DNA of 64,000 nt from Escherichia coli (GTDB lineage Bacteria > Pseudomonadota > Gammaproteobacteria > Enterobacterales > Enterobacteriaceae): assembly GCF_022846255.1 (NCBI RefSeq), contig NZ_AP025682.1, one strand, 5' to 3'. Made by a program: the position numbers and the translations under genes. The notes under the pieces were generated by a model that was not told the DNA's origin, did not search any database, and was given only the letters and a program-made list of their open reading frames with translations. This document shows, piece after piece, positions 2 to 41,474 of this stretch (within the stretch, counting starts at the first letter, position 1; each line of letters opens with the position of its first letter).

Positions 2-877
2 AAATATATCGCTCTCGATCTCTCGCTACCACTGGGCAACTGGTTTAGCGCAGGGATGACCCATCAAAACGGCTACACCATGGCAAACCTGTCAGCACGC
101 AAACAGTTTGATGAAGGAACCATTCGCACTGTTGGTGCCAATCTGTCACGAGCCATCTCCGGCGATACCGGTGATGACAAAACCCTCAGCGGTGGGGCGT
201 ATGCACAGTTCGACGCTCGTTACGCCAGCGGAACGCTGAACGTCAATAGCGCGGCGGACGGCTACATCAATACCAATTTGACCGCCAACGGCAGCGTCGG
301 CTGGCAGGGTAAAAACATCGCTGCCAGCGGGCGGACCGATGGCAACGCTGGGGTGATATTCGACACTGGCCTGGAGAACGATGGTCAGATCAGCGCCAAA
401 ATCAACGGGCGGATTTTCCCGCTTAACGGCAAGCGTAACTATCTCCCGCTCTCTCCCTATGGAAGATATGAGGTGGAGTTGCAGAACAGCAAAAACTCAC
501 TCGACAGTTACGATATCGTCAGCGGTCGCAAAAGTCATCTGACTCTCTATCCAGGCAATGTCGCTGTCATTGAGCCAGAGGTGAAGCAGATGGTTACCGT
601 CTCCGGTCGTATCCGTGCGGAAGACGGCACACTGCTGGCTAACGCACGGATTAACAACCATATCGGCCGAACCCGAACCGATGAAAACGGCGAGTTTGTC
701 ATGGACGTGGATAAGAAATACCCCACTATCGATTTTCGCTACAGTGGCAATAAAACCTGCGAAGTGGCACTGGAACTCAACCAGGCGCGCGGTGCCGTCT
801 GGGTCGGTGATGTGGTCTGCAGCGGCCTCTCATCGTGGGCGGCGGTGACGCAGACAGGAGAAGAGAATGAGAGTTAA
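2..877 (+). CDS. ecpC: Fimbrial usher EcpC (MatD/YagX), C-terminal part; start lies upstream of the window
   Basis: Frame is open from window start to stop at 877; followed directly by ecpD and ecpE in the conserved ecp order; sequence recognised as the usher C-terminus. Confidence 0.8.
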
Positions 878-13282: not shown

Positions 13283-13897
13283 TTATCCTTCGATAAAAGC
13301 CATCCCTGTGAACGTTCGTCGCGGGTTGCCACGTTCAATCTGGTGATGGAACATTCGCCGCTGCGATTTCAGCGCCGCGCTATTTTCCTGTTGCTGTTGT
13401 TCCAGCTTCCAGGCAATCAGTAATCGCGCCAGCCGCTTGTTAGCATGCTGACTGCGCTCTGACTGAACCTTCACGCTAATACCGGATGCCAGATGCGTGG
13501 CGCGTACCGCCGAGTCGGTTTTATTGACATGTTGACCGCCCGGCCCCGACGAACGCAGCGTCTCATAACGGATCGCGTCGGATTGTTCCTGCTCATCAGC
13601 GGTAAAACGCCCAATGCCCAGAAACCAGTTTTTGCGCCCATGATGAGGCCGATACGGACTCGGACAAATCCACTGGATAGTGCCACACCAGCTTTCGCTT
13701 AGAGCCCATGCGTTATCGCCATCCAGAGAAATCAGCGCCGAACGCAGTGTGTCAGAGTAGCGACCCGTTTCTGTTTCCAGCACCGTTACCGCGACGTCCT
13801 GTCGGGTAGCTTCTTTAATCAGCCTGTCCAGTGCTTTTCTCACTGCGAGACAACATTCTTCCGGCCCCTGAGCAGAGGAGAGTTGTAGCAAGATCAT
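13283..13897 (-). CDS. prfH: Peptide chain release factor homologue PrfH (RF-H), about 204 aa, apparently intact
   Basis: Class-I release-factor-like sequence with the GGQ motif ([17 protein letters not shown]); start set at [16 protein letters not shown], where the ATG overlaps the rtcB-like stop (ATGA). Confidence 0.8.
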
Positions 13898-15045
13898 CCT
13901 TTTTTCCCTCCACTGTTTTTGAGCGTCAGCACCGGGCGCAGTCGCGCGACAGGAATAATTAACCCAGCCAGCACCAGACATTGCACCACGCTTTCAGCCG
14001 ATTTATAGGCTTGTGGCGCTTCTTCAAAGATGAGTTGTTTATCGCGACAAATTACCCGACTGCCAAGTTCAGTCCGCGAGAGTTGCGTCGCCGTGTATTT
14101 CGCTGCCAGACGCCCTTTACACTCGGTGCGCCCCCATTTACGCCCCGCCCCATGCGCCAGCGAGTGGAGCGTTTTTTCGTTCGCAACAGGTTTAACCAGC
14201 CAGGAGTAATCGCCGCGTGAACCGGGAATAATCACCAGACCGTTGTCATCCGGCGTGGCGCCTTTACGATGCAACCAGCCCTGTTGATCGCCGATTTGGC
14301 ACGCGCTAACAAAGTTATGCGCCACATCCAGAACCGGACTTCCGGTGGCCTTAACTTGTTGCATTATGCGCAAAGCGATCAGCTGGCGATTAATACGCGC
14401 AAACGCCAGCGCATCGTCATGTTCCGCAATATACCGTAGCGCGTCGTCACTGCCTTCAGGCAAACCATGATGCGAAAACGAGGCAATATGCCGCTGTAAA
14501 ATAGACTGCCCCAATCCCCTCGAGCCGCTATGAACCAGCAGTTGCAGATGCTGCGCATCCAGACCAGCCAGTGCAAACAGTTCCGCGTCGATAATTTGAT
14601 CAATCTGTTGCAGTTCTGCGAAGTGGTTACCGCCACCGATGGAGCCAAGCGAGTTGTGCCACGGATGCTGTGCAAATGCTGACGGCAGGTTTTCCTCCAG
14701 CCAGCTTTCTTCAGCAACGTCATCCAGATCTGATAATCGCTTTTCAAACTTATCGGCGTTGTATTTGCGAGCGAGAATATCTGTTTGCCATAGCGCCATG
14801 CCGCAGCCGATATCATTGCCGACCAGTGCCGGGTAAAAACGGCCTACGGAGAAGAACGCTGCGCCAATCGGGTAGCCGCGTCCGGGATGTAAATCTGGCA
14901 TCCCCACAACGCGCTGCATGTTGGGTAAATTTGCCGTGGTGTGTAATTGTTGGATCGCTAAACTCTCGATCCACAGGTCATCAGATGCGATGGTAAATAC
15001 CGCATCGGATAAGGGACGAATATATTTGCCCATGTACCATTCCAT
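13894..15045 (-). CDS. RtcB-family RNA ligase paralogue coupled to prfH (ykfJ region in K-12), 383 aa
   Basis: RtcB-like His/Cys-rich motifs ([22 protein letters not shown]); translationally coupled to prfH. Confidence 0.8.
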
Positions 15046-15222
15046 TTATGAATAAAAATCAGGAAATGGCAGACGAATCCAGGGCAAGAAAAAAGAATTA
15101 ATCCTGGAAAGGTCTGCAAAGAGTCATTGATAAAGGATTTGTCATGATTTACCTCCTTGCAGTTTGTGGAATAAGAAAACGCGCACATACTAGACGGGCG
15201 TTATTTTCATTGCAAGCTGGAT

Positions 15223-15675
15223 TTAATGTTGCGGTTTATATCGCATATAAAAATTAGTAAACCACGTTCCCCGGCATTCAACGCGCTGCTGCTTAACTGT
15301 CTGAAAACCATAACGTTCAAAAAAGGGTTTTGCGGTTATGCTGGCGTCCACCGTAAGTTCGGATTCAGACTTAATCAATGGTTTTAACAAAGCGCTGGCA
15401 ACTCCGCGTCGGGTGTATTCCGGTTCAACAAATAACATATCGATATAATGTCCAATGCGGGTAATAAAACCAACCGGTTGTGCATTAATAACTGCAACCC
15501 GCACTTGTGATTTCGCGAGTTTCTCCTTCCAGCGAGATTCGTCAATCTGCGCCCAGGCGGCAATTTGCTGTGGAGAATAGTGCTGACTCGCCGTCATCGT
15601 AACAGCTCGAAGGAAAATAGCGCATAGTTGCTGAAAATCACCAGGCTGATAGTTTCTTATTTGTATGTTATTCAT
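15223..15675 (-). CDS. yafP: GNAT-family acetyltransferase YafP, 150 aa
   Basis: Full-length ORF; last gene of the dinB-yafNOP operon. Confidence 0.9.
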   Translation of the reverse strand: MNNIQIRNYQPGDFQQLCAIFLRAVTMTASQHYSPQQIAAWAQIDESRWKEKLAKSQVRVAVINAQPVGFITRIGHYIDMLFVEPEYTRRGVASALLKPLIKSESELTVDASITAKPFFERYGFQTVKQQRVECRGTWFTNFYMRYKPQH

Positions 15676-15684
15676 AATATAAAT

Positions 15685-16083
15685 TCAAAAACGCATGCGA
15701 AACGCTTCTGCCATTTTCCCAATTTTATGCATTTGGTTGTTATCTCGAGCCAGTTTATGAGGTTCAGGTTTCAGAATGGCAATGAGCAACCATGCTTGCT
15801 CATCAAACGCACCCTGACAATATACCAAATGCGCTGCGTCATTCGTTCTGCTGAATTGGCGCAACTGTGGCGGAAATGGATTATTCACATTTGCCAGATG
15901 AATATGAGCAACTCGCTCAAATTTGATTAATGGCCAGGTAAACGAGTCGTCGTAGAGTGCATCGCGACCAAATATATCTGGCAAAACACCGTCACGCTTA
16001 TAGGAAATAAAATCCGCCGTTAACGCATCAAGTTCCTCTGCTGTAAGTTGCAGGCGAATAAGTTTTGTTTTGAATACCCGCAT
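15685..16083 (-). CDS. yafO: mRNA interferase toxin YafO, 132 aa
   Basis: Full-length ORF directly downstream of yafN, 2-nt gap. Confidence 0.9.
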   Translation of the reverse strand: MRVFKTKLIRLQLTAEELDALTADFISYKRDGVLPDIFGRDALYDDSFTWPLIKFERVAHIHLANVNNPFPPQLRQFSRTNDAAHLVYCQGAFDEQAWLLIAILKPEPHKLARDNNQMHKIGKMAEAFRMRF

Positions 16084-16085
16084 CC

Positions 16086-16379
16086 TTATTCCTTAAAGTC
16101 ATTGAAATCATCATCCGTCATATCATTAAGATATTGTTCAGCGCGGCGTGTAATTTCCTCTAATCTTGCGGCACTCGGACGGAAGCGCGCCTTAACCAGT
16201 TTTTTCTCCTCTTGTTCAGCAAGCATGTCCATTAACGCTTCAAATGCGCTGGCACTTAAGAGATATCCTGCGGGGCGATTATTAGAAAGAACCGCAACCG
16301 GTTGATCAATAAAGTATTTAGCTGGGTTTTTACGTAACTCAGTGATATTGACCGATTTTTCAGCGAGAATTCGATGCAT
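16086..16379 (-). CDS. yafN: Antitoxin YafN (Phd/YefM family), 97 aa
   Basis: Full-length ORF; typical antitoxin-before-toxin arrangement. Confidence 0.9.
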   Translation of the reverse strand: MHRILAEKSVNITELRKNPAKYFIDQPVAVLSNNRPAGYLLSASAFEALMDMLAEQEEKKLVKARFRPSAARLEEITRRAEQYLNDMTDDDFNDFKE

Positions 16380-16430
16380 ACAGTGATCCCCTCATAATAA
16401 TGCACATCAGAATATACATAATAGTATACA

Positions 16431-17486
16431 TCATAATCCCAGCACCAGTTGTCTTTCCATTTGAGGGTCAAGTAACGTCACATGCAGCCCCACCAGACGC
16501 ACACCGCGCCCGCCACGGCGTTCATCCCAGGTTTTACGCGCGGTGGCGATTAAGTCAGCTTTATTCAGCCGCGGCCAGACGTGCTCCTGAGTGGTTTGCT
16601 GAAAATCATCAAACTTTAATTTCACCCCCTGGCGAGCAATCAGTAAATCAGGTTTTACCTTTGCCAGACGGCGTTCAAGTTCAGGATACAGCCGCTCGAT
16701 AATCGCTTCACATTCAGACCAGTGATGAATATCTTCCGCCATCGTGCGTTCCACGCCGACGGATTTTCGCAACCGTTCACTGTTAACGTCGCGCTCGTCA
16801 ATCCCCTGACTACGCTCCCACAAAATGCGGCCAAATTTGCCAAAACGTTTGAGCAGAGTCACCAGATCACACTTTTGCACATCACCGCAGGTCCGCAGCC
16901 CCATCGCTTCCAGTTTTGCCGCCGAGACTTTGCCGACGCCGGGAATTTTTGCCAGCGGTAAGGTTTGCAGAAATGCCGGAACTTCTGCCGGCGTAATCAC
17001 AAACTGGCCGTTGGGTTTATTCATGTCGGAGGCGATTTTGGCGAGAAACTTGACCGGCGCAACGCCCGCAGACGCCGTCAGTTGCAGCTCGTTGAAGATC
17101 GTCTGGCGGATTTCCTGGGCGATGAGGGTCGCAGAACCGTGGCAATGGACGCTATCGGTGACATCGAGATAGGCTTCATCCAGTGATAACGGTTCAATGC
17201 GCGAGGTATAGCGCGAGAAAATTTCGCGGATATGATTTGAGGCTTCTTTGTAGGCGTCAAAGCGCCCTGGAAGCAAGGTGAGATGCGGGCATAATTTGAG
17301 CGCCATCCCTGTCGGCATAGCGCTACGTACGCCAAATTTACGCGCGGGATAATTGGCGGTGCTGATTACCCCCCGTCGTTCGCGGCTGCCGCCAATAGCA
17401 ATAGGGATATCGCGCAGGGCGGGATTGTCGCGCATCTCCACCGCTGCGAAAAAGCAGTCCATATCCACATGAATGATTTTACGCAT
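16431..17486 (-). CDS. dinB: DNA polymerase IV (Y-family translesion polymerase), 351 aa
   Basis: Full-length match ([46 protein letters not shown]...). Confidence 0.96.
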
Positions 17487-22361: not shown

Positions 22362-23678
22362 TTACGCGAATGCCGCCATGCTGGCTTTCATGGTGTACAC
22401 CTCGACCAGCGTGTTGGTGTACTCCTCGAGATAACGGTCGTAGTTGGCGTTATAGGTATCAGTAAGCTGATCGCCTTCGTCCTGAATTTTGCTCATCTGA
22501 TCGTCAATGTTCTGCTGGCGCAGGGTGATGATGCCGTTGCTGGAGTCCGTGTAGGTGTTAATCAGGTCGTCCATCTGTGCCACCATGCTGTTGTCGCCAA
22601 CGAAAATAGAGGTCAGACCGTCAGGATTTTTCGCCATTTCGTCGTTGAACTGGTCGGAGTCAATCTGTAAGTGGCCGTGAGAATCAAGCGTGATGCCATA
22701 GTCAACAATCGACACCCCGTTGTAGCTGGCATGGGCGATATCATCGAGCTGGTTCGCCAGTGAGCTGAGTCCGGCGTCACCCGCAAATACCCCGGCGCTG
22801 GTACTGTCATCACCGTGGGTGGTCAACGAATCAACCGTATCAATCAAGGTGTTATAAGCATCAACAAAGGTCTGTACTTTCTCCTGGCTGGCGCTGGAAT
22901 CTTCGCTGATGTTAAAGGTAGTGAGATCGCTGTCAGAATCGCTGACTTCGGTGAAAGTCATGGTGACGCCGGGGATCACATCATCAAAGGTATTGCTGCT
23001 ATTAGTGATCTCTGGCCCCGTGGCGCTGCCGAGATGAATAATCGCGTCCTGGGCGGAGGAAACATCCGTAGCAACAGGCGCGCTGGCGCTGTCGTTGCTG
23101 GCGTCATGCCCCGTTACGCTCACCGAAAATGCGCTCTGCGCCCCGGTGCTATCGGAGGTGAGCATAATCGTGGTGGTGCCGTCGGTTTTTACCAGTGCCG
23201 CCGACACGCCCGGATTGTCATCAGAGTCGTTAATCGCATTCACCAGTTCACTGGCGTCGATAAAACCGTCGCCGTCACCGTTCTGATCTGCCGCCGACAG
23301 ATCAATATCCATGGTGCTGTCGCCCATCGTCAGTTCGAAGGTGCCGGTAGCGGAAAAGGCGTCGTCGCCCATACTGAACGTGGTTTGCTGCCCCTGTGCC
23401 AGTTGCTCAACGAAAAATGAGTAGCTTCCCGCCTGCACCTGCGAGTTAGCGGAAACGGTCGCCGAGTCATTATTGCTGGTGGCGGCAAACGTCACCGGGC
23501 CGTCAGTATCGCTGTTCAGCGCGTCAACGGCGCTCTGAAAATCGCTCAACGCTGAGCTGAGCGAGTCCAGGCCGCTGCTTTCAGCATCCAGCTCGCTCTG
23601 CTTCTCCTGCAAATTGGCTGCCTGAGTGGCAACATCCGCATAAGCGATTTCTTGCGCAATGGTTCTTGGGTTGATCAT
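22362..23678 (-). CDS. lafB: Filament cap protein LafB (FliD / HAP2-like), 438 aa
   Basis: FliD-like N- and C-terminal heptad regions; first gene after a sigma54 promoter motif. Confidence 0.8.
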   Translation of the reverse strand: MINPRTIAQEIAYADVATQAANLQEKQSELDAESSGLDSLSSALSDFQSAVDALNSDTDGPVTFAATSNNDSATVSANSQVQAGSYSFFVEQLAQGQQTTFSMGDDAFSATGTFELTMGDSTMDIDLSAADQNGDGDGFIDASELVNAINDSDDNPGVSAALVKTDGTTTIMLTSDSTGAQSAFSVSVTGHDASNDSASAPVATDVSSAQDAIIHLGSATGPEITNSSNTFDDVIPGVTMTFTEVSDSDSDLTTFNISEDSSASQEKVQTFVDAYNTLIDTVDSLTTHGDDSTSAGVFAGDAGLSSLANQLDDIAHASYNGVSIVDYGITLDSHGHLQIDSDQFNDEMAKNPDGLTSIFVGDNSMVAQMDDLINTYTDSSNGIITLRQQNIDDQMSKIQDEGDQLTDTYNANYDRYLEEYTNTLVEVYTMKASMAAFA

Positions 23679-24798: not shown

Positions 24799-25232
24799 GA
24801 TACTGCTCCTTGGGATTAATCGTTTTCGTTTCGATACCCTGTAAAAACGACACCTCAGGAGCAAACTTAAAATCGCCGTTAAAATTTTTTCGCCACGTAT
24901 TATCCGATGCCACTTTTAGCTAAAAAAAGCAGAGGTTAAATTCAGATAAAAAGATTATTAGCAATATCTGCCACATGGCCAGGAATCAAAATATGTCTTT
25001 ATCAAATGCTTGATATAGTTAAGATTGTCATCAATTAACGCGTTTTCTTCTCAATGTACTGATGCCAAAATTTACATTGCGTTGCAAATAGTACACGTTT
25101 AGCTATTGTGCCTGTCCTGTCATTTCGTTACATTTCCACGCCATATAGTGATTAAGAATAATCCTATTACCATAAAATATTAATTATCACGCAGAAAAAT
25201 CATCTTCTCAGGGACGTATAAGACTGTGCTTT

Positions 25233-26126
25233 ATGCAAAGCACTATCAGGAAACATTTATCCCTTGCTAAGGTAAACTCAACTATGAGTATTATTATCAA
25301 CAACTGGCGGATGGACCCGTCGCTTAATGCCTTAATACATTGCGAAACGGGTGAAACACGTCGTCTCGGCGAATACCATTTTATTTTGCTGGAAACATTA
25401 GCAAAAAATGCCGATGTGGTTTTATCGCGATCTTATTTATGTGCCGAAGTATGGAAGAACCGCATTGTCGGCGGTAACAGCCTGCCGACGGCGATCCACG
25501 CTCTGCGCGTTGCCATTGATGATGACGGCAAGCAACAGAACATTATTAAAACCATCCCGAAAAAAGGGTACCTGTGCAATAAAGAGTATGTGTCTTTGCC
25601 GGAGTCATCGCCTGCAGAAGCGCTGATTATTACCGACCAGATACAAGATACAGCCCCAGAAGAGATATCTTCGACAACACCGCCTGTACCTGTTAGAAAA
25701 AAACATAAAGGACTGATGGGGTTAGCGTTGGCCGCAGCTGTTATATTTATTGGCTCGACCGTGGGGTATTCACACTTGAAAAGTACACCTGACGCCCCGC
25801 AACTGGTAAAAGAGTCAATTAACAGTCCAAGAATAAAAATATTTCATTTAACTTCTGCTGGAGAAAATAATTCCGTACCGTTACTATCACAAACCCTCGC
25901 ACCAGGAAAAGACAAACTCGATAATTTATTGTCAGCGCATAATATGACAATGACAACCTATTATAAATATGTTCGTAACCGACTGGAGAGTGATATTGTT
26001 CTGCGCAACCAGTGCAATGGTAGCTGGCAATTAACCTTTAATGTGGAAGGTTGGCAGAACAGCGATATTAATAGCGCGATGTATCAGAATTTAGAGAAGT
26101 TGTTAAATACTGTGCAGAAATGCTGA
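25233..26126 (+). CDS. lafZ: LafZ, membrane-anchored ToxR/CadC-like winged-helix transcriptional regulator (alternative start at 25284)
   Basis: N-terminal OmpR/PhoB-type winged-helix region (about aa 20-110), single TM (LMGLALAAAVIFIGSTVGY), C-terminal presumably periplasmic domain; divergent from lafA. Confidence 0.65.
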   Translation: MQSTIRKHLSLAKVNSTMSIIINNWRMDPSLNALIHCETGETRRLGEYHFILLETLAKNADVVLSRSYLCAEVWKNRIVGGNSLPTAIHALRVAIDDDGKQQNIIKTIPKKGYLCNKEYVSLPESSPAEALIITDQIQDTAPEEISSTTPPVPVRKKHKGLMGLALAAAVIFIGSTVGYSHLKSTPDAPQLVKESINSPRIKIFHLTSAGENNSVPLLSQTLAPGKDKLDNLLSAHNMTMTTYYKYVRNRLESDIVLRNQCNGSWQLTFNVEGWQNSDINSAMYQNLEKLLNTVQKC

Positions 26127-26141
26127 TGAGTGCCAATATAT

Positions 26142-26178
26142 GCCGGATGCGACGCTAAACGCGTCTTATCCGGCCTAC
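26142..26178. repeat. REP element between lafZ and lafW
   Basis: GCCGGATGCGACGCTAAACGCGTCTTATCCGGCCTAC. Confidence 0.55.
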
Positions 26179-26184
26179 CGATAA

Positions 26185-27162
26185 TTACCCCAATAAATTC
26201 CTCACCGTCTGGCTGGAAATTCGCGCCTGACCGTTCACAGCCTGCAATAAAACCTGATAGTTATGATTGGCGCTATCAAGCACACCGCCGAGATTTTCCG
26301 ATGCCTGCACCGCGTTTTCCGTTTGCGGGAAGCGCGACATGCCGTCGATCAGCTGCCGCGCTTTTTCCTGCTGCACCGCCATCTTCGCGCGCTGCTGATT
26401 AATGTTTTCTAACGTCTGAGAAATCCCCGCCCCACCCTGTTGCAGGCTTTGCGCTAAGCGGTCCGCCTGTGACGGTTCGGCAAAGGTTTTTAGCGGCATA
26501 AACGCTGATTTATCACCATCGGTACGCACGCTTAAGGTTCGTTCGATATGGGGCCACTGTTTTTCAGTGGTGGAGAAGCTGATGCCATCGGCGTGTTGAT
26601 GCATCTGAACGCCCACGCGGCGCAGAGCGTTGGTCAGCCGCGTCTGATACTGCGCGGCGCTGTCATCCTCAGACAGCATCACCGCCGAAAGCTGAGTCTG
26701 CCGCCCGTCAGAGACGCTGAACATGCGCGTTCCCGGCGTGGGATTGTGTACCAGATTCGTCAGATCCGGCGAGTGAAAAGTCACCCGCGCTTCCCCCTGC
26801 AACACTGGCTGCAACTGGCGGTCCACCGCGCCGCCGGAAAGCGCGGTGCGTTTGTCCAGCATCTGCATCAGCGCTGAACTCTGCGCCTGCCCGCCCTTAC
26901 GCTGGCTGTGACGGTAATCGAGCAACTGCTGTTCCAGTTGCCCGAGATAGTGATCCGCCTGCTGCAACGTGGTGAGCTGATCGTTAAGCTGCACACTGTA
27001 ACGCTGCGGGCGAGTGGTAATCAGCGGCGAGGCCGGATATTCACTCGCCGTCGCCGGGAGTTTTTGCCGCACCGCCTGAGTGGGCGCAACGGTTGACGAC
27101 GATACCGCAGCGCTATGCGCGCCGCCGGTGGCGAGTGATGAAGATGTAAGTCCGACCTGCAT
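26185..27162 (-). CDS. lafW: LafW, lateral-flagellar-cluster protein of unknown function, 325 aa
   Basis: ORF directly downstream of lfgL; no domain recognisable by eye; name assigned by position in the Flag-2/lateral flagellar gene order. Confidence 0.5.
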   Translation of the reverse strand: MQVGLTSSSLATGGAHSAAVSSSTVAPTQAVRQKLPATASEYPASPLITTRPQRYSVQLNDQLTTLQQADHYLGQLEQQLLDYRHSQRKGGQAQSSALMQMLDKRTALSGGAVDRQLQPVLQGEARVTFHSPDLTNLVHNPTPGTRMFSVSDGRQTQLSAVMLSEDDSAAQYQTRLTNALRRVGVQMHQHADGISFSTTEKQWPHIERTLSVRTDGDKSAFMPLKTFAEPSQADRLAQSLQQGGAGISQTLENINQQRAKMAVQQEKARQLIDGMSRFPQTENAVQASENLGGVLDSANHNYQVLLQAVNGQARISSQTVRNLLG

Positions 27163-27178
27163 ACGGTTCCTGAAAGAG

Positions 27179-28108
27179 TTAGAGAACGCTGAATAAATTC
27201 AACTCACTCACTTTCGAGTAAGTCTTGAGGGTAGCTTCCATTGCCACTTCCAGTCCGGTAAAGGTGATCGACGCCGGGCCGTAATCGAGATCCTGTAAAG
27301 AACCAATCAACTCATCATTAGAGGTAGAAATATCGGTCTGCGCATCGCTCAGCATCGACATGGTGTTCTGCGTCTCGCCAAGCGACGCAATCGAGGCGTT
27401 GAGATCGTCCGAAGCGGTATCCACCACATCAACGGCGTTCTGAAGATCGCTCTGCACCTGCGGATCTGCCGGGTCAACATCCGGGTTTTGCAGCTCCTGC
27501 GACAGGGAATTAAGGGTGTTGAGCACGTCTAAATTACTGCCGAAGAAATCGCTCGCCGCCACGTTGGTATCCACTTCCACGCCGTTCGACACCGTAGTCT
27601 GACGATGGTCACTGTTACCCTGATAGCTATAGCTGTCGGTCACACCATCACCGTCATCATCCACAGCCACAATCGGCGGCTGATCGTTGATGGTGCCGCC
27701 AAAGACGTAATGCCCGTCTTCATCCTGATAGTTCAGCGCCGCGACCATTGATTCGGTGAGCGACTCAATATCCTGGCCGAGGCTTGCCAGCGAATCGGCG
27801 GTATTGGTGCCGTTCGCTGCTTCCAGCAGGTCGTCACGCACCGCCAGCAGGCTGTTGTTGACGCCATCAAGAATAGACTCCTGCTGGCTTAAGCCCGCCG
27901 ACGCGGAGTCGATATTGCTCTGATACTGTTCAATCGCCGACTGCTGGCGGTTTAACTGGGTGATGCGCGTGGCGGCGATTGGGTCATCCGACGGCTGCAA
28001 AATTTCCTTGCCGGTTGCCATCTGCTCGACCACATGCGCCAGAGAGCCGGAGAGATTATTAAAACTTTGCGTCATCGAGACGTAGGTTTGTTGGGTGGTT
28101 ACTCGCAT
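27179..28108 (-). CDS. lfgL: Hook-filament junction protein LfgL (FlgL / HAP3-like)
   Basis: Flagellin-like N-terminal segment (MRVTTQQTYVSMTQ...PSDDPIAATR); start set 8 codons inside the ORF-track start. Confidence 0.8.
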   Translation of the reverse strand: MRVTTQQTYVSMTQSFNNLSGSLAHVVEQMATGKEILQPSDDPIAATRITQLNRQQSAIEQYQSNIDSASAGLSQQESILDGVNNSLLAVRDDLLEAANGTNTADSLASLGQDIESLTESMVAALNYQDEDGHYVFGGTINDQPPIVAVDDDGDGVTDSYSYQGNSDHRQTTVSNGVEVDTNVAASDFFGSNLDVLNTLNSLSQELQNPDVDPADPQVQSDLQNAVDVVDTASDDLNASIASLGETQNTMSMLSDAQTDISTSNDELIGSLQDLDYGPASITFTGLEVAMEATLKTYSKVSELNLFSVL

Positions 28109-28122
28109 TTTCGCGCTCCCGC

Positions 28123-29499
28123 TTAGCTGCACATTTCCAGCACCGAATCGAAAATCTCGGCCCCGGCGGAAATGACTTTCAGATTGGCTTCATAAATTTG
28201 TTGATAGGTGATCAGGTTCACCGCCTCTTCGTCCATGCTGACGCCGCTGACGCTACTCTGCTGGTTTTGCGCTTCGGAATAGACATTGGACGCGGCATCG
28301 ACTTCCGTCTGGTTTTGCTGACTGTAAATGCCGATATTGCTGATGATTGACGAGCACGCCTGCCCGACCGTCACACTGCCGAGGTTGGCTATCTCCAGCG
28401 GTTCGGTGGAGATATTGATCAGCGCCTGCAGGTTGTCGCTGTTGCCGCTTTCGTCCGGTGAACTGGAAAACGCCAGCTCATCGGCAGTGATATCCGGGTT
28501 AACGGTCAGTGGGCCGTCGGCATTGCTGGCATCGTAAATAAACAGTGGCTCGCCGGGGTTACCGTTGAGATCGTAGCCCTGCGCCAGCTGGTTGTTGACC
28601 GCATCGGCGAACTGCGACGCCATGCTGTTGATGGTGTCGGTCAGCGGCGTCAGCACATCGTTTTGATAATCAAACAGTGCGCCTAATGAACCGCCAGTGT
28701 CGGTGGTCATCGTCGAGATGGTTCCGGCGAAGGTCAGCGTCATACTTGCTGTACCATCGGCGTTGGTTTCCAGCGCGATGGTCGAGCTTTGCTGCCCGCT
28801 CACCAGCGGCTGACCGTTTTTCAGGGTGACGTTGTAGTTGCCCTGGTCGTCAACATTGACCTGCACGTCCATCATTCCGCTCAGTTCTTCCACCATCTGA
28901 TCGCGGGCGTCGTACAGCGCGGAGGCGTTATCGCCGTTGGCTTCGGCCTGAGCGATTTGCTGGTTATAGCTGGCGATGCCGCTGGTCAGCGTATTGATTT
29001 GCGATACCATCGCCTGCTGCTGACTGATGATTTCCGTGCTTTGCGAGTCGATGTAATCCAGCGTGTTGTCGATGCGCAAGGACAGCGCCCCGGCTTCGCT
29101 GATCACCTGCTCGCGCAGGGCGGAATCATCGGGGCTGGTGGTCGCTTCGTTAAGGGCAGCGAAAAAGTTATCGAAGCCGCCGCTCAGACTGCTGTTATCG
29201 TCGCTCAGTACCGCTTCCAGTTGTGTGAGATACCCTTGTTGGGTGCTGTAATAGCCGTAATCGCTGGCGGCATACCATACCTGATTAACCTGATACTGGT
29301 TGGAGACGCGGCGAATACTGTCGACCTGCACGCCGTTACCGGCGCTGTTCGGCGAACCACCGCTGGCACCGATGGTGCTGATCTCCGCCACCTGGCGGGT
29401 GTAGCCCGTGGTCATGGCGTTAGCGGTGTTTTGCGCCGTGACGTTCAGCTCCACCTGCGCGGTTGATGCGCCGCTGTAGCCGATGTTAATCATGTCCAT
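28123..29499 (-). CDS. lfgK: Hook-associated protein 1 LfgK (FlgK-like), 458 aa
   Basis: FlgK-like N-terminus (NAMTTGYTRQ) and conserved C-terminal helix. Confidence 0.85.
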   Translation of the reverse strand: MDMINIGYSGASTAQVELNVTAQNTANAMTTGYTRQVAEISTIGASGGSPNSAGNGVQVDSIRRVSNQYQVNQVWYAASDYGYYSTQQGYLTQLEAVLSDDNSSLSGGFDNFFAALNEATTSPDDSALREQVISEAGALSLRIDNTLDYIDSQSTEIISQQQAMVSQINTLTSGIASYNQQIAQAEANGDNASALYDARDQMVEELSGMMDVQVNVDDQGNYNVTLKNGQPLVSGQQSSTIALETNADGTASMTLTFAGTISTMTTDTGGSLGALFDYQNDVLTPLTDTINSMASQFADAVNNQLAQGYDLNGNPGEPLFIYDASNADGPLTVNPDITADELAFSSSPDESGNSDNLQALINISTEPLEIANLGSVTVGQACSSIISNIGIYSQQNQTEVDAASNVYSEAQNQQSSVSGVSMDEEAVNLITYQQIYEANLKVISAGAEIFDSVLEMCS

Positions 29500-29571
29500 G
29501 TTGGGTCCTTACCGGTAAATCGTGCCGGTTAAAAGCGGCGTGAAGTTGGGGATTCTTAAGTGGATAATGGT

Positions 29572-29705
29572 GCGCGCTGATGCCCTCACCCCGGCCCTCT
29601 CCCACAGGGAGAGGGCGAAAACCTGCGCCATATTCACCTCCGCGCTCAATCGGTCCCCTCGCCCCTTTGGGGAGAGGGTTAGGGTGAGGGGCAAAGCGCG
29701 CCCCT
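29572..29705. repeat. ~130-bp compound palindromic intergenic repeat, copy A (two hairpin units), between lfgK and lfgJ
   Basis: CCCTCACCCCGGCCCTCTCCCacaGGGAGAGGGC ... TCCCCTCGCCCCTTTGGGGAGAGGGTTAGGGTGAGGGG; near-exact reverse complement of copy B at 38862..38993. Confidence 0.6.
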
Positions 29706-37794: not shown

Positions 37795-37921
37795 CGACAA
37801 TTCCTTCCGCCATCGCGGAAACGGATTTTCCGCCTGATTCTCAATCCCTTGTTTTTGATTACAAAAATTCCCGGCACGCTTATTGCACATTCCGCAAAGT
37901 AATAAAGACTGGAAGCCACCT

Positions 37922-38851
37922 ATGAGTTTTATTGAATGTTACGAACCGGAATACGTGCGCAATTTTATGACGCAATATCCCGATTCGCCTTTGTACGTCC
38001 GCAAGGTCTGGAAGAATGAGATTCGCCAGAGCCTGGCATTGACCGATATTGAAAGTTGCAAAGCGGTGCTCAACGATGCCAGGGCCTTTGATTTACAGCT
38101 CACCTACCGCCCTGTGGAAGACAATGCCGCCGAGCTATCCGCGCGCGATGCGATAGTAAACCAGGCCATTTTGAGCACCCTTACGCTCCCCGATTTAACC
38201 CCGGAGCTTTCCCTGTATGCCGTCGGGATTTTGCTCTCCCGCGCCAGTAAAATGCCGGGCAGAGACGGAGATATTCTTGCCCGCTTGACGACGCTGCCAC
38301 AGGCGCTGGGGGATCATGCACAAAAAGGCACGCTACAGGCACAGTTCGCCCAACTCCCACCCGTGCCACAACTGGCGCGCCAACTGGTGACGCTGCTCGG
38401 GAGTTTTGCGTTTGACTGGTCGATTTTGCCGGAAAGCCCGCGCAAAGCCTCGCTACCGTTGCAGGTGACTTTGCTGACGTTGCATGACGCCAACAGCGAA
38501 GCTTTGTTGCAACAGCAGCTTAAGGTGCAGTGGCAAACCACCTGGCAACAGCATTTTGCCGCCGCGCCGTGGATGATGCGCAACTGGCTGATTTACCGAG
38601 TTTATCACGACGTGATTGGGCAGGCAGACGGAGCAGATTATTGCCCGCTGGTGTGTGATTTTTATCTCATCCGCACGTTAATCAGTTTATGGACGCTGGA
38701 TGGTTCTGCGCTGCGGCAGGAGGATATTTTCGCCCTCTTTGCCATGTTTGAACGCTGGCGGACCAGTGAAAATGCGCTGTTTATTCGCCAGCAAATTCAG
38801 TCGTTATGTGCCGCAGAGCCGCTGCTGTCAGCGTTTTCGCTGCTGACGTGA
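37922..38851 (+). CDS. Hypothetical protein, about 309 aa, no recognisable domain; first gene of the putative modification module
   Basis: ATG at 37922 with a GGAAG Shine-Dalgarno; same strand as, and upstream of, the multidomain glycosyltransferase. Confidence 0.55.
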   Translation: MSFIECYEPEYVRNFMTQYPDSPLYVRKVWKNEIRQSLALTDIESCKAVLNDARAFDLQLTYRPVEDNAAELSARDAIVNQAILSTLTLPDLTPELSLYAVGILLSRASKMPGRDGDILARLTTLPQALGDHAQKGTLQAQFAQLPPVPQLARQLVTLLGSFAFDWSILPESPRKASLPLQVTLLTLHDANSEALLQQQLKVQWQTTWQQHFAAAPWMMRNWLIYRVYHDVIGQADGADYCPLVCDFYLIRTLISLWTLDGSALRQEDIFALFAMFERWRTSENALFIRQQIQSLCAAEPLLSAFSLLT

Positions 38852-38861
38852 GTCGCTCTGT

Positions 38862-38993
38862 GCGCGCTTTGCCCCTCACCCTAACCCTCTCCCCAAAGGG
38901 GCGAGGGGACCGATCGAGCACGGTGTTAAAATCGGCGCTGGTTTTCTCCCTCTCCCTGTGGGAGGGGGTCGGGGTGAGGGCATCAGCGCGCAC
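38862..38993. repeat. ~130-bp compound palindromic intergenic repeat, copy B, inverted relative to copy A
   Basis: GCCCCTCACCCTAACCCTCTCCCCAAAGGGGCGAGGGGACCGATCG...CTCCCTCTCCCTGTGGGAGGGGGTCGGGGTGAGGG; reverse complement of 29572..29705. Confidence 0.6.
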
Positions 38994-39029
38994 ATTCATC
39001 ACATTCACCCATTAACTCACCCAGACACC

Positions 39030-41474
39030 ATGCCAACACCGACCATCATCAAAACACTCGCCACCCACCGCGAAAAACCGTTCGTCAGCGTCGTCACGCC
39101 AACCTGGAACCGCGGCGCATTCCTGCCGTACCTGCTTTATATGTACCGCTATCAGGACTACCCGGCAGACCGCCGCGAACTGGTCATCCTCGACGATTCC
39201 CCGCAAAGCCATCAACACATCATCGACCGCCTGACCAATGGCACGCCGGAGTCCTTCAACATCCGCTACATCCATCACCCGGAAAAACTGCCGCTGGGCA
39301 AAAAACGCAACATGCTCAACGAACTGGCGCGCGGCGAATACATCCTCTGCATGGACGATGACGACTACTACCCGGCAGATAAAATCTCTTACACCATCGC
39401 TATGATGCAAAAAAACCGGGCGCTCATCTCCGGTTCCGACCAGATCCCCATCTGGTACAGCCACATCAATCGCATCTTTCAAAGCCGCAGCTTCGGCCCG
39501 CATAACATCCTCAACGGCACCTTTTGCTATCACCGTAACTACCTGAAAAAGCACCGCTACGATGACGATTGCAATTTAGGCGAAGAGAAAAGTTTCACCG
39601 ACAATTTCAGCGCTAACCCGCTACAACTGCCCGGCGAGCGCACGATTTTGTGTATCTCGCACAGCCACAACACCTTTGATAAAGACTTTATCCTCGGGGC
39701 CAGCACGCCTGTAAACGCGGCGCTTACGGATATCGTCAGCGATCCGCTGCTACGCAACGCTTATCTGGGTCTGCATAACGCCACTCATTATCAGGCGATC
39801 CAGCATCAGGCGATCGATCAGATCGTTCTGCTGAATCTGGATAAACGCCCGGATCGCTTACAGCAGATCCGTGAAGAACTGACATTGCTGCATATTCCGC
39901 CTGAGAAGATCACCCGCCTTGCCGCCAGTGAAAATGAAAACGGTCAACGGGGCCGCCAGCAATCACACTTGCAGGCGCTGCATCTGGCGCAACAGCACGG
40001 CTGGCAAAACTATCTGCTGCTGGAAGATGACGCGGTTATTCTCAAACAGGAGAAACATATTCAGGTGCTGAACGCGCTGCTGGCGAGCCTGGCGAAAATT
40101 CCCTGGCAGGTGATGATCCTCGGCGGCGAAATTTCGCAGGGAACGATGCTAAAAAGTTTGCCTGGGCTGGTGCACGCGCGGGACTGCCGCAAAGTGTGCG
40201 CTTATCTGGTGAACAGCCGCTACTACCTGCAGCTGGCGCAGCAGATGAACAACGATGAGCATTCGCTGGAAGGCGGCTGGCAGCCGCTGCTGCGCACCGA
40301 CAAATGGCTGGCCTGTTACCCGAGCCTTTGTTATCAGCGACCGGGCTTTAGTGATATCGAGAAAAAAGCGACTGATAACATTAACCACTACTTCAATAAG
40401 TTACCCGTAGCCACCAAGCCATCTACATTACCTATCGCCGATACCATCGGCTTTTTTATGGAAACCTCATTCCACTACGCGCTCTACCGCCCAATCATCA
40501 CTGCCCTACAGGCGCAAGGACAAAGCTGCACGCTGGTGATCAACGACCGCGTGTTTAAACCGTTTCTGGATGAAATGCTGAATACGTTAAAAAGCATCGA
40601 CGATCCACAGCTCAAAGGAATGCGCTTATCGGAAATGCAGGCACACGGTCAGCGAGTAAAATGCCTGGTCAGCCCCTATCACACGCCTGCGCTCAGTGGC
40701 CTTTCCCCCCTGAACATTCGCGCCATGTACGGCTTAGCCAAAGAAACGTGGAACCACGCCGACTGGAACCGTTTTTATCAGCGCATTTTGTGTTACAGCC
40801 ACTACAGTCAGCGGGCGCTGGCACATTTCGGCAGCGCAAAAGTGGTCGGCAACCCACGCTTCGACGCCTGGCATAACGGCACGTTCGACCGCGCTCTGCC
40901 GGAAAATATCCAACCCGATTCCCGTAAACCTACGGTGCTCTATGCCCCCACGTTTGGCGCATTAAGCTCCCTGCTCCACTGGGCAGAAAAATTGGGGCGT
41001 TTGAGCGGCGATGTGAACCTGATTTGCAAACTGCACCACGGCACCTGCTCGCGCCCGGAAGAAGCCGCATCGCTGGCACTGGCGCGCAGGCATTTAAAAC
41101 AGCGCACCGACTCTGCCCGCCACACGCTGGCGCTACTGGCAAAGGCCGATTACGTGCTCACCGATAACAGCGGGTTTATTTTCGATGCTATCCACGTTGA
41201 TAAACGGGTGATCCTGCTCGACTTTCCGGGCATGACGGAACTGCTCGACGGTGAGAAAAGCTACTCCACGGCAGAGAGCGCCGACCAGCGAATCCGCGAA
41301 ATATTGCCGGTGGCTCATGATGTTGCGGAACTGCGTTACTTATTGTCAGAGGTATTTGACTGGGGGGCGGTTCAGACGCGGCTTACGGAAATTCGCCATC
41401 ACTATTGCGATGCGTTTATGGATGGCAAGGCGGGAGAACGAGCGGCGTTGGTGATTGTGGAGGCGTTGGGGTAA
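39030..41474 (+). CDS. Three-domain glycosyltransferase, about 814 aa: GT2-like + GT25-like + TagB/TagF-like CDP-glycerol glycerophosphotransferase (domain calls by motif)
   Basis: GT-A signatures (VSVVTPTWNRG, VILDDSP, CMDDDDYYPADK); GT25-like block (LLNLDKRPDRLQQI...LLLEDDAVIL); TagF-like block (VLYAPTFG...LTDNSGFIFDAIHVDKRVILL); start codon uncertain (39030 ATG vs 38958 GTG inside the repeat). Confidence 0.75.
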   Translation: MPTPTIIKTLATHREKPFVSVVTPTWNRGAFLPYLLYMYRYQDYPADRRELVILDDSPQSHQHIIDRLTNGTPESFNIRYIHHPEKLPLGKKRNMLNELARGEYILCMDDDDYYPADKISYTIAMMQKNRALISGSDQIPIWYSHINRIFQSRSFGPHNILNGTFCYHRNYLKKHRYDDDCNLGEEKSFTDNFSANPLQLPGERTILCISHSHNTFDKDFILGASTPVNAALTDIVSDPLLRNAYLGLHNATHYQAIQHQAIDQIVLLNLDKRPDRLQQIREELTLLHIPPEKITRLAASENENGQRGRQQSHLQALHLAQQHGWQNYLLLEDDAVILKQEKHIQVLNALLASLAKIPWQVMILGGEISQGTMLKSLPGLVHARDCRKVCAYLVNSRYYLQLAQQMNNDEHSLEGGWQPLLRTDKWLACYPSLCYQRPGFSDIEKKATDNINHYFNKLPVATKPSTLPIADTIGFFMETSFHYALYRPIITALQAQGQSCTLVINDRVFKPFLDEMLNTLKSIDDPQLKGMRLSEMQAHGQRVKCLVSPYHTPALSGLSPLNIRAMYGLAKETWNHADWNRFYQRILCYSHYSQRALAHFGSAKVVGNPRFDAWHNGTFDRALPENIQPDSRKPTVLYAPTFGALSSLLHWAEKLGRLSGDVNLICKLHHGTCSRPEEAASLALARRHLKQRTDSARHTLALLAKADYVLTDNSGFIFDAIHVDKRVILLDFPGMTELLDGEKSYSTAESADQRIREILPVAHDVAELRYLLSEVFDWGAVQTRLTEIRHHYCDAFMDGKAGERAALVIVEALG

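Follow-up and report, generated by a model that had tools for sequence, protein, structure and literature searches.

What does an additional gene do directly behind the gene for a hook–filament junction protein? In flagella, the junction and the cap are generally described as built from three hook-associated proteins (HAPs), FlgK, FlgL and FliD. Lateral (Flag-2-type) systems hold an additional protein, always alongside flgL in the loci examined, that is under purifying selection and joins a flagellin-like predicted fold to a degenerate N-terminus. Should it prove structural, a very well studied machine would gain a part, and LafW would show how a flagellin-fold protein can function while lacking one of the pair of terminal helices that axial proteins are generally taken to need for assembly. 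Should it prove regulatory, it would be a flagellin mimic that controls late export. We examined this protein in a window of 64,000 nucleotides, the whole stretch of Escherichia coli DNA analysed here.

The lafW gene and its transcription unit

By its sequence, the protein encoded in the window is LafW, already known from the Flag-2 locus of E. coli. Along its full length it shares 96% identity with P0001, the main cluster in E. coli (325 aa, 4363 member sequences), which is named ‘flagellar hook-associated protein [E. coli]’, and 95% with P0015 (‘lateral flagellar putative hook associated protein’). In the closest genome this ORF is part of the PGAP annotation, and Yersinia members of the family carry the name lafW. 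The name LafW in the Flag-2 locus is said to come from Ren et al. 2005, and the label ‘putative hook-associated protein’ has been in use since 2005. The gene has served as a marker (De Maayer et al. 2020, PMC6993521). Some members bear the automatic UniProt names ‘Flagellin’ or ‘Flagellar hook-associated protein’. The latter label, as it stands in the databases, is a hypothesis because no detectable sequence domain lies behind it.

Is lafW a functioning gene? In codon-aligned orthologs dN/dS is 0.06–0.16 overall, with values of 0.06–0.09 inside Escherichia/Pseudocitrobacter (dS 0.24–0.39) and of about 0.15 against Citrobacter. We conclude that lafW is a real gene under purifying selection. The region is found in 1276 of 5426 complete E. 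coli genomes, a further sign that the ORF is more than chance. Many E. coli have lost Flag-2 or carry it in degraded form; shortened alleles of 214–263 aa occur (P0011, P0014, P0015, P0017, P0039), and P0020 is a deletion chimera FlgL::LafW. Such losses and shortened alleles would fit a decaying or functionless ORF of a cryptic locus. However, the window allele is full length, its cluster is large, dN/dS is low and the family spans two proteobacterial classes with fixed synteny. LafW is also present in the Budvicia and Pragia loci (L028, L031), genera in which flag-1 is absent, yet which are described as motile (PMC6993521). We regard decay as hardly credible. A spurious ORF or pseudogene is contradicted outright by dN/dS and conservation.

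The order of genes in the window is lfgK–lfgL–lafW on the minus strand, lafZ on the plus strand, then lafA. This agrees with the order in the literature, lafWZABCDEFSTU: lafW opens cluster 3, with lfgL immediately ahead of it and lafZ/lafA following. An AGGA sequence sits 5 nt ahead of the lafW ATG, as read directly from the spacer, and in five loci the spacer from flgL to the lafW homolog measures 9–72 nt. (PGAP starts lfgL later, at 309 codons plus stop.) No sigma-70-like promoter and no convincing terminator turned up in scans of the region between lfgL and lafW; the sole terminator-like match lies inside the 3′ end of lfgL and has only 3 G–C pairs, and shuffled sequences give more such matches than the region does. 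The 16-nt gap, the Shine–Dalgarno sequence and the absence of a terminator support the cotranscription of lafW with the hook-associated genes, of which it is the final cistron (lfgB...K-L operon). The ORF of 325 aa, its 16-nt distance from lfgL and its place in the same operon had all been given in an earlier note on this DNA; the data bear them out, and place the gene on the minus strand.

Where might this transcript begin and end? The pattern TAAGnnT-N10-13-GnCGnTTT has two sites in the 64 kb, one upstream of lfgK and one upstream of lafA (24844–24869), where 0.14 are expected; this count is post hoc because the pattern was built from those same two sites. The motif is found again at both syntenic positions in Escherichia, Pseudocitrobacter, Citrobacter, Budvicia and Lelliottia loci. 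At the other end, where lafW and lafZ converge, a hairpin lying between the two genes is probably the 3′ end of the lafW transcript; its GCCGGATGCGACGC...GCGTCTTATCCGGCCTA resembles the REP elements of E. coli. The coordinates of these features, and of the parts of the protein discussed below, are collected in table 1.

Table 1. Features of lafW and its surroundings, with positions in the window.
Feature	Position	Strand	Basis or remark
REP-like hairpin between convergent lafW and lafZ ends	26139..26177	.	17-nt arms, 82% complementary, 5-nt loop
lafW CDS, 325 codons + stop	26185..27162	-	ATG ORF list and translation
LafW codons 232–325, C-terminal helices (CD1/CD0-like), end ...NYQxLxQAVNGQAxxSxxTVRNLLG	26188..26469	-	AF2 H232–241, H247–276, H282–300, H302–313, H317–324, pLDDT 73–98
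LafW codons 110–231, conserved alpha/beta domain between helices, flagellin D2 position	26470..26835	-	AF2, pLDDT ~97
LafW codons 54–109, N-terminal helices of D1-like bundle	26836..27003	-	AF2 H54–87, H93–109, pLDDT 91–98
LafW codons 1–53, Ala/Ser/Pro/Thr-rich N-terminal region, predicted disordered	27004..27162	-	In the place of a flagellin N-terminal D0 helix
lfgL–lafW spacer, 16 nt, with Shine–Dalgarno AGGA	27163..27178	-	Read from sequence
lfgL (lateral HAP3/FlgL), immediately upstream of lafW in operon	27179..28132	-	TIGR02550 1.3e-57, over curated cut-off; Pfam Flagellin_N 1.3e-14; PGAP flgL
lfgK (lateral HAP1/FlgK), opens putative late lfgK–lfgL–lafW unit	28123..29499	-	Pfam FlgK_D1 2.9e-64, Flg_bbr_C 1.6e-10; PGAP flgK
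Promoter-like motif TAAGAAT-N12-GCCGCTTT, upstream of lfgK	29532..29558	-	Candidate LafS (sigma-28-type) late promoter, function inferred

Distribution of the family and its coupling to flgL

The LafW family comprises 246 clusters at 50% identity (E<=1e-3), drawn from the gamma- and betaproteobacteria, and most of the clusters listed are 310–385 aa long. Its taxa include Escherichia, Citrobacter, Yersinia, Pantoea, Pseudomonas/Stutzerimonas, Burkholderia, Trinickia, Rubrivivax, Paludibacterium and Parazoarcus; the carriers are free-living soil and water bacteria, and enterics too. One of them, Stutzerimonas stutzeri, produces lateral flagella. Word-indexed protein searches with wide LafW alignments returned mostly close relatives, among them zero members from Vibrio or Aeromonas and no bridging protein with Flagellin Pfam domains. 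The family has so far stood outside all Pfam and NCBIfam models.

How constant is the position behind flgL? A LafW homolog lies directly after flgL in all of the 87 lateral (Flag-2-type) loci examined, namely in 7 of 7 context look-ups, on the same strand, and likewise in 80 of 80 loci retrieved via FlgL, these being the best 80 of 296 FlgL by similarity to the query and hence a biased sample of lateral systems with Vibrio and Aeromonas outside it. The genes downstream vary among loci. LafW pairs strictly with flgL, and not with lafA, lafC or lafS. The specificity for lateral clusters that had been proposed for this ORF is therefore upheld, LafW being missing from none of these loci; the searches gave no homology to an unrelated housekeeping protein.

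Predicted fold and parts of the protein

Does LafW resemble any known flagellar protein in sequence? A Pfam scan found nothing at E 0.05 (the cut-off was 25 bits, the top score 13.8), and NCBIfam gave no match either. Flagellin_N (PF00669) and Flagellin_C (PF00700) had no match at E<=1 in the window protein or in 44 family members, and the Pfam domains FlgK_D1, Flg_bbr_C, FliD_N and FliD_C, present in the neighbours lfgK and lafB, are not in LafW. That the protein has no recognisable domain, as the earlier note stated, is what these scans show as well. FlgL and flagellin share an N-terminal helix and a ‘PSDDP’ region; LafW has neither. Flagellins start with ‘MAQVINTNSLSL’, which the LafW start, ‘MQVGLNTSSLS’, resembles over a stretch too short for a test.

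Searched against the PDB, the single LafW sequence gave only noise. With an enterobacterial LafW profile the best matches were the flagellins 8sug, 5wk6, 9n8b and 4nx9 (E 0.03–0.1; 0.034 for 8sug and 5wk6), C-terminus on C-terminus, and a second profile matched the flagellin 5wju (E 0.052), again with the extreme C-terminus aligned. In these searches the final ~85–120 residues of LafW align end-to-end with the C-terminal helices of flagellin, at a marginal E of 0.03–0.05. With the deepest profile (120 sequences, mainly from betaproteobacteria and Pseudomonas) the flagellin matches were gone. Using hhalign, a profile of 192 LafW sequences compared with the cognate FlgL (84 sequences) or LafA (16) reached a probability below 1%, against 98.6% for the FlgL–LafA control; shallow alignments were likewise not significant against FlgL and LafA. 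Because of these comparisons we do not claim sequence homology between LafW and flagellin or FlgL. Among 4230 local ORFs, the best non-self matches of LafW are FlgK, FlgL and LafA.

The fold is another matter. A confident AlphaFold2 (AF2) model of LafW (pLDDT 85.7) begins with some 53 disordered residues rich in Pro, Ala and Ser; the remainder is made up of a helical bundle, an alpha/beta insert that is conserved, and helices at the C-terminus. In a Foldseek search of the PDB, each of the ten top matches to this model is a flagellin (E 1.9e-7 to 4e-4), and FlgL and FliD come next; the matches to FliD and FlgK are weak (E 0.05–0.5). The ten are flagellins with a compact outer domain: FliC of Pseudomonas aeruginosa (4nx9/8sug), FlaA/B/D of Vibrio cholerae and p5 of Sphingomonas (2zbi/3k8w). 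Their alignments extend over 280–440 columns and therefore take in the inserted alpha/beta domain. The model has a D1-type bundle with a domain inserted between its N- and C-terminal helices, and the order of parts, helix, inserted domain, helices, is the same in LafW and in the compact flagellins. At about 0.26, however, the TM-scores against flagellins indicate that the arrangement of the domains differs. We conclude that LafW is predicted to have a fold of the flagellin/HAP superfamily. Structure prediction had been proposed as a check on this protein, and here it points to a flagellin-like fold.

How, then, does LafW differ from the members of that superfamily? From FlgL (HAP3) it is set apart by its conserved alpha/beta insert. 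From flagellins it differs in lacking the N-terminal D0 helix (ND0), in its inserted domain, which is conserved where that of flagellin is hypervariable, and in its apparent transcription from a HAP operon, flagellin being the abundant filament subunit. The scores of LafW against FliD (HAP2) and against the T3SS needle-tip protein IpaD are not significant, and a genuine FliD (lafB, 22362–23678) is already encoded in the cluster. Helicobacter pylori HP1076, a FliS co-chaperone with a flagellin-like helical bundle (3k1i), is a chain of 119 residues that aligns with the helical part of LafW only; nothing in it corresponds to the inserted domain, it scores the same as designed helical bundles, and only one of 44 LafW members has a Pfam hit for it.

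Could LafW be an enzyme-like accessory instead? The gene between flgL_L and lafA of Plesiomonas shigelloides (349 aa) was called maf-5, with ‘minimal similarity’ (PMC4481668), which together with the lysine-N-methylase and glycosyltransferase encoded in the window locus might suggest a Maf-like factor for modification of the lateral flagellin. Yet classical Maf domains are missing from the Plesiomonas protein by the authors’ own statement (PMC4481668), the Maf Pfam family matches neither LafW nor 43 relatives, and by Foldseek the fold is flagellin-like, not Maf-like. We consider the suggestion very improbable and, as LafW has no Maf or other catalogued domain, we reject it.

The N-terminal residues 1–53 are coil in both models (pLDDT 43–58 in the deep-alignment model, 30–35 in the first), and neither model has an N-terminal D0 helix. 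Across the family this region is 20–83 aa long, poorly conserved and rich in A (17.5%), S (10.6%) and P (10.5%); the motif ‘MQVGLxT(S/T)SLS’ at its start is kept in Enterobacterales. The maximum Kyte–Doolittle value of any 19-residue window is 0.71, and with no hydrophobic segment LafW has neither a Sec signal nor a TM helix. This rules it out as a Sec-exported or membrane protein. LafW is also nearly cysteine-free. On its composition and predicted disorder, the region is a candidate flagellar type III export signal.

The next segment, codons 54–109, carries the motif RYSVQLNDQLTxLQQADxYLxxLE, with Q67 nearly invariant (at least 90% in the 120-sequence alignment). In HMM comparison it matches, weakly and collinearly, the N-terminal D1 helix of flagellin from Bacillus subtilis, and there is another weak match to FlgL 58–89 (hhalign P 0.04); the two registers are about 10 residues apart. 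In the AF2 model the alpha/beta insert consists of strands 126–130, 144–151, 156–163, 186–190, 193–199 and 211–214 and helices 132–139, 169–182 and 203–209. Near-invariant within it, among 120 sequences, are F129, E144, L180, G184, F196, E200, W203, G214 and G216. Codons 232–325 have the lowest dN of LafW within Enterobacterales, and the final 15 residues are among the most conserved in the family. It is helices 302–313 and 317–324 (pLDDT 78–85) that match the flagellin C-terminus, marginally. The protein had been described as without flagellin-like terminal helices; this stands for the proline-rich coil of the N-terminus, but neither the C-terminal half nor the overall fold agrees with it.

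Possible roles of LafW

What role might such a protein play? The reading that we favour, at somewhat short of even confidence, is that LafW is a low-copy, late-exported accessory at the hook–filament junction or the filament base. From the gene order and the predicted fold, LafW would be made in low copy alongside the junction proteins LfgK and LfgL, and the lateral flagellar type III apparatus would export it as a late substrate. Its disordered N-terminus, the absence of a signal peptide and the near absence of cysteine are compatible with export. It may then work outside the cell as an accessory, a ‘fourth HAP’ placed at the junction or where the filament makes its first turns, docking via its D1-like bundle and conserved C-terminal helix and displaying the alpha/beta domain. 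Without ND0, LafW alone would probably not form a regular 11-protofilament lattice layer.

Several observations speak against a role at the junction. Axial proteins (rod, hook, junction, filament and cap) as a rule enter the structure via terminal helices at both ends, and LafW, unlike them, has no N-terminal helix. Its conserved blocks include the inserted domain, whereas the outer domains of flagellins are variable. The sequence similarity between LafW and flagellin is below the usual thresholds. A more specific proposal is a possible one that we hold with less confidence: judging from the model, LafW could be a flagellin-fold, axial-family component without the N-terminal D0 helix, exported to form a new low-copy layer or a cap-like adaptor at the lateral hook–filament junction, a fourth hook-associated protein that would be conserved in all gamma- and betaproteobacteria with this lineage of FlgL.

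Might LafW act inside the cell instead? As a cytoplasmic flagellin mimic or regulator, its C-terminal helices would attach to the export gate or to one of the export chaperones (LafC/FliS, LfgN/FlgN) and so time or limit the export or translation of LafA; without ND0 it could not polymerise. In Salmonella it is the C-terminal part of FliC that binds FliS, and that of FlgK/L that binds FlgN, and the conserved C-terminal segment of LafW aligns with the flagellin C-terminus. The missing N-terminal D0 helix and the conservation, rather than variability, of the inserted domain also fit. LafW could even be exported after hook completion, as a checkpoint in the manner of FlgM. However, its full-length Foldseek matches are flagellins with an outer domain, not small chaperone-type bundles; the cluster already encodes the anti-sigma factor lfgM and the chaperones lfgN, lafC and lafD; and, as noted above, flgL is its strict partner where lafA, lafC and lafS are not. 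On these grounds we think a cytoplasmic role unlikely.

If LafW is exported, must it remain on the flagellum? By analogy with Campylobacter FlaC it might be a secreted, non-structural flagellin paralog, released via the lateral apparatus to the medium or to surfaces and functioning outside the flagellum. The flagellin-like fold with its atypical terminus would suit such a protein, as would the disordered N-terminus, the lack of a Sec signal and of almost all cysteine, and an inserted domain that could serve as a binding module. We rate this as quite improbable: no known adhesin or effector domain is matched by LafW, its expression is from the low-output HAP operon with no strong promoter of its own, and the tight, universal coupling to flgL, in enterics and in free-living bacteria of soil and water alike, points to a function within the assembly of the flagellum itself. 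FlaC of C. jejuni is reported to be a secreted, non-filament flagellin homolog that uses flagellar export (PMC5466977); like LafW, it departs from the filament-forming architecture. The descriptions of the two proteins nevertheless set them apart: FlaC keeps both flagellin termini and has lost the central domains, and LafW is the reverse, with a degenerate N-terminus and a conserved central domain.

The lafW gene and its transcription unit

The window is the E. coli Flag-2 (lateral flagellar) locus, and its ORFs around lafW include lfgK, lfgJ-B, lafZ (a winged-helix regulator gene convergent with lafW), lafA (NCBIfam lateral flagellin match, 3.4e-201), lafB/FliD, lafC/FliS and lafE/FliK. ORF listing and sequence bear out the 325-residue ORF of the earlier note, which had left its minus strand unstated, as well as the spacer of exactly 16 nt after lfgL; within this spacer an AGGA stands five bases 5' of the lafW ATG. 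A promoter scan detected no sigma-70-like promoter between lfgL and lafW, and no convincing terminator lies there: the sole terminator-like match is a weak stem within the lfgL 3' end, such matches being rarer in this region than in shuffled sequence. The operon shared with the hook-associated genes, as originally proposed, is thus upheld.

Features of the window and of LafW (residue rows: deep AlphaFold2 model)
Feature	Position	Strand	Description and basis
lafW	26185-27162	minus	ATG start, 325 codons; ORF listing and translation
lfgL	27179-28132	minus	FlgL by TIGR02550 (1.3e-57) and Flagellin_N (1.3e-14)
Promoter-like motif upstream of lafA	24844-24869	minus	pattern search
Promoter-like motif upstream of lfgK	29532-29558	minus	pattern search
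REP-like hairpin	26139-26177		3' of lafW stop; 17-nt arms, 5-nt loop; GCCGGATGCGACGC...GCGTCTTATCCGGCCTA
Palindrome arms, 35 nt	29569-29603 and 29670-29704		lfgJ-lfgK region; shorter perfect hairpins besides
dinB-yafN-yafO-yafP	13283-17486		PGAP names, closest genome
Lysine-N-methylase and large glycosyltransferase	37883-38851, 38958-41474	plus	PGAP names, closest genome
LafW coil	residues 1-53		pLDDT 43-58
LafW helices	residues 54-87, 93-109		pLDDT 91-98
LafW alpha/beta domain	residues ~112-230		pLDDT ~97
LafW helices	residues 232-241, 247-276, 282-300, 302-313, 317-324		pLDDT 73-98

When might this operon be expressed? In a post hoc search, the pattern TAAGnnT-N10-13-GnCGnTTT occurred only twice in the 64-kb window, with a spacing of N11-12, upstream of lafA and of lfgK. 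It recurs at the same two syntenic sites in Escherichia, Pseudocitrobacter, Citrobacter, Budvicia and Lelliottia loci, none of which was used to derive it; among the loci retrieved through their FlgL, both sites are occupied in L008-L027, L031, L075 and L084. The motif partly resembles the enteric sigma-28 consensus, and the two sites are probably late promoters of the sigma-28-type factor LafS. Because of this partial likeness and of the motif's presence before both genes, we suggest that lfgK-lfgL-lafW is also transcribed as a late unit together with the flagellin gene, as is flgKL in Salmonella.

The genes lafZ and lafW converge, with stop codons at 26126 and 26185, and the REP-like hairpin sits exactly between the two; it may be a common transcript end or stabiliser for both. 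The lfgJ-lfgK intergenic region (29500-29704, ~205 nt) is full of GC-rich palindromic repeats; they lie just 5' of the promoter-like motif and have the look of an E. coli intergenic repeat element that was inserted there.

In codon alignments of orthologs, the dN/dS of lafW is 0.06-0.09 when it is compared with Escherichia and Pseudocitrobacter alleles (dS 0.24-0.39) and about 0.15 with Citrobacter. It is a real, constrained gene; the notion of a functionless ORF is contradicted by the data and we give it next to no credence. Of 5426 complete E. coli genomes, 1276 have the lafW region. Both the allele in the window and the dominant cluster, which numbers 4363 member sequences, are full length. 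Several E. coli lineages carry a frameshift-truncated LafW of 250-252 residues, missing the C-terminal ~80, and in one isolate an in-frame deletion has created the chimera FlgL(1-66)::LafW(100-325) (protein P0020).

The name 'lateral flagellar putative hook associated protein' sits on one of the truncated alleles, while PGAP labels lafW "flagellar hook-associated protein" or "hypothetical protein". Comparative genomic studies, citing Ren et al. 2005, treat LafW as a putative hook-associated protein without a flag-1 counterpart and use it as a marker gene (PMC6993521, PMC7526173). We found no functional data in the literature consulted, where mentions of LafW are confined to comparative genomics; the usual "hook-associated" label of this already named gene is a guess.

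The LafW family and its position after flgL

In an exhaustive profile search of sequences clustered at 50% identity, 246 clusters matched at E<=1e-3, 133 of them at E<=1e-10; the listed members are mostly 310-385 residues long and matched across most of their length. The Enterobacterales members come from Escherichia, Citrobacter, Yersinia pestis/pseudotuberculosis, Pantoea, Rosenbergiella, Tatumella, Mangrovibacter, Ewingella and Leminorella. Beyond the published accounts and database labels consulted, the family extends to Pseudomonas/Stutzerimonas (Aquipseudomonas alcaligenes, Metapseudomonas otitidis and many Stutzerimonas, all Pseudomonadales) and to the betaproteobacteria (Burkholderia oklahomensis, B. 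dolosa, B. lata, Trinickia, Rubrivivax, Paludibacterium and Parazoarcus).

The homolog was the gene right after flgL in all seven genomic context look-ups, separated from it by 9-72 nt in the five loci with a gene table that gives the spacing. This adjacency is kept in Rubrivivax, Trinickia and P. alcaligenes, where the following genes are non-flagellar. A LafW homolog also lay immediately 3' on the same strand (E 1e-64 to 1e-104) in 80/80 loci retrieved via FlgL; being the best 80 of 296 FlgL matches (37-98% identical to that of the window), these sample the query-nearest FlgL lineage rather than all lateral systems, with Vibrio and Aeromonas outside. In the loci examined the position is invariant, which again goes beyond the accounts and labels consulted and agrees with the lateral-system specificity first suggested for LafW.

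For V. parahaemolyticus, lateral region 1 is cited as spanning VPA0264-VPA0275, one gene beyond what flgB-L requires, and in Plesiomonas (P. shigelloides) a 349-residue gene after flgL_L was named maf-5 although it lacks Maf domains (PMC4481668). VPA0275 and maf-5, known here from literature descriptions alone, may be LafW counterparts. That LafW itself is a Maf-like modification factor we consider highly improbable.

Two more distant Enterobacterales loci carry an extra ORF of 158-172 residues between lafW and lafZ, overlapping the lafZ start (L001 9019-9537 and L003 9035-9511, both on the minus strand). It has no Pfam match and is missing from E. coli; its place of insertion is the VR2 integration spot (PMC6993521). 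Another locus, L024 (CACSKA010000002.1), is labelled 'Chryseobacterium sp. 18061' and holds an Enterobacteriaceae-type Flag-2 locus whose FlgL, 69% identical to that of the window, is followed by LafW; the assembly behind this record is probably contaminated or mislabelled.

Predicted fold and likeness to flagellins

Searches of Pfam and NCBIfam matched no family, in keeping with the absence of a recognisable domain noted before. What fold might LafW adopt? AlphaFold2 gave a pLDDT of 71.7 from a 19-sequence alignment, and 85.7 (pTM 0.74) from 120 diverse sequences; the two models agree in overall plan. No hydrophobic segment was found (maximum 19-residue hydropathy 0.71), nor any Sec or TM signal. 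Across the family, the N-terminal region is rich in Ala/Ser/Pro/Thr (Pro 10.5%) and ranges from 20 to 83 residues, and cysteine is almost missing. Conservation falls on the first long helix (RYSVQLNDQLTxLQQADxYL), on F129, E144, L180, G184, F196, E200, W203, G214 and G216 of the alpha/beta core and on the last ~15 residues; the variable parts are the N-terminus and helices 231-300.

The ten best Foldseek matches of the model in the PDB are all flagellins (prob >=0.99, alignments of 280-440 columns), led by P. aeruginosa FliC 4nx9 (E 1.9e-7) and including V. cholerae FlaA/B/D, Stenotrophomonas, Sphingomonas p5 and the P. aeruginosa filament. FlgL, FliD-FliC and FliD rank next; the first non-flagellar match is IpaD, at E 0.13. 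However, TM-scores to these flagellins are low (~0.26), and the domains must therefore be arranged differently.

Profile searches gave mixed results. The enterobacterial profile has as its five best PDB matches the P. aeruginosa and Vibrio flagellins already met with Foldseek (E 0.03-0.1), LafW 213-332 aligning with the extreme flagellin C-terminus. A 44-sequence profile matched B. subtilis flagellin best (E 0.052), in three collinear stretches (N-terminal D1 helix, D1 hairpin region and C-terminal helices), and among 4230 local ORFs the best non-self matches were FlgK, FlgL and LafA (E 0.002-1). On the other hand, no family member scanned matched Pfam Flagellin_N or Flagellin_C, the deepest profile lost the flagellin signal in the PDB, and in hhalign the alignments of the cognate FlgL and LafA matched LafW with a probability below 1%, compared with 98.6% for the FlgL-LafA control. 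At this level the evidence for kinship is weak, and by sequence LafW fails the definition of the flagellin family. Since the fold matches but the sequence evidence is mixed, we describe LafW as having a predicted flagellin-superfamily fold and as probably a very remote flagellin homolog. The earlier view that it lacks flagellin-like terminal helices stands only for the N-terminus, modelled as coil. A flagellin-like fold with a degenerate N-terminus, as modelled, is likewise absent from the accounts and labels consulted.

Possible role of LafW

Operon position, conservation, predicted fold and the absence of Sec/TM signals are established for LafW; beyond these we infer. Our tentative preference is for an accessory protein that is exported in low copy and acts at the hook-filament junction or filament base. 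LafW would leave the cell as a late flagellar type III substrate, which its disordered N-terminus, lack of cysteine and flagellin-like C-terminal helices fit. That lafW is co-transcribed with the junction protein genes and not driven by a strong promoter to itself argues for low copy number, and the strict coupling to flgL for action at or beside the junction, where the bundle and C-terminal helix of LafW would serve for docking.

What speaks most against this reading is that the LafW model has no N-terminal D0 helix, on which, as far as is known, axial proteins rely for assembly; this makes a regular LafW lattice layer unlikely. The same absence favours the main rival, a cytoplasmic flagellin mimic that would bind the export gate or chaperones of the FliS or FlgN type and thereby time flagellin export; weak similarities of LafW to FliS and its co-chaperone HP1076 are compatible with this reading but non-specific, and we think it unlikely. 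More doubtful still is a paralog that, like FlaC, would be secreted and play no structural part.

On its lafU side the locus adjoins dinB-yafN-yafO-yafP, which is where Flag-2 usually sits in the E. coli chromosome. The lfgN-lfi variable region encodes the lysine-N-methylase and large glycosyltransferase of the table, which suggests that the lateral flagellin is modified.
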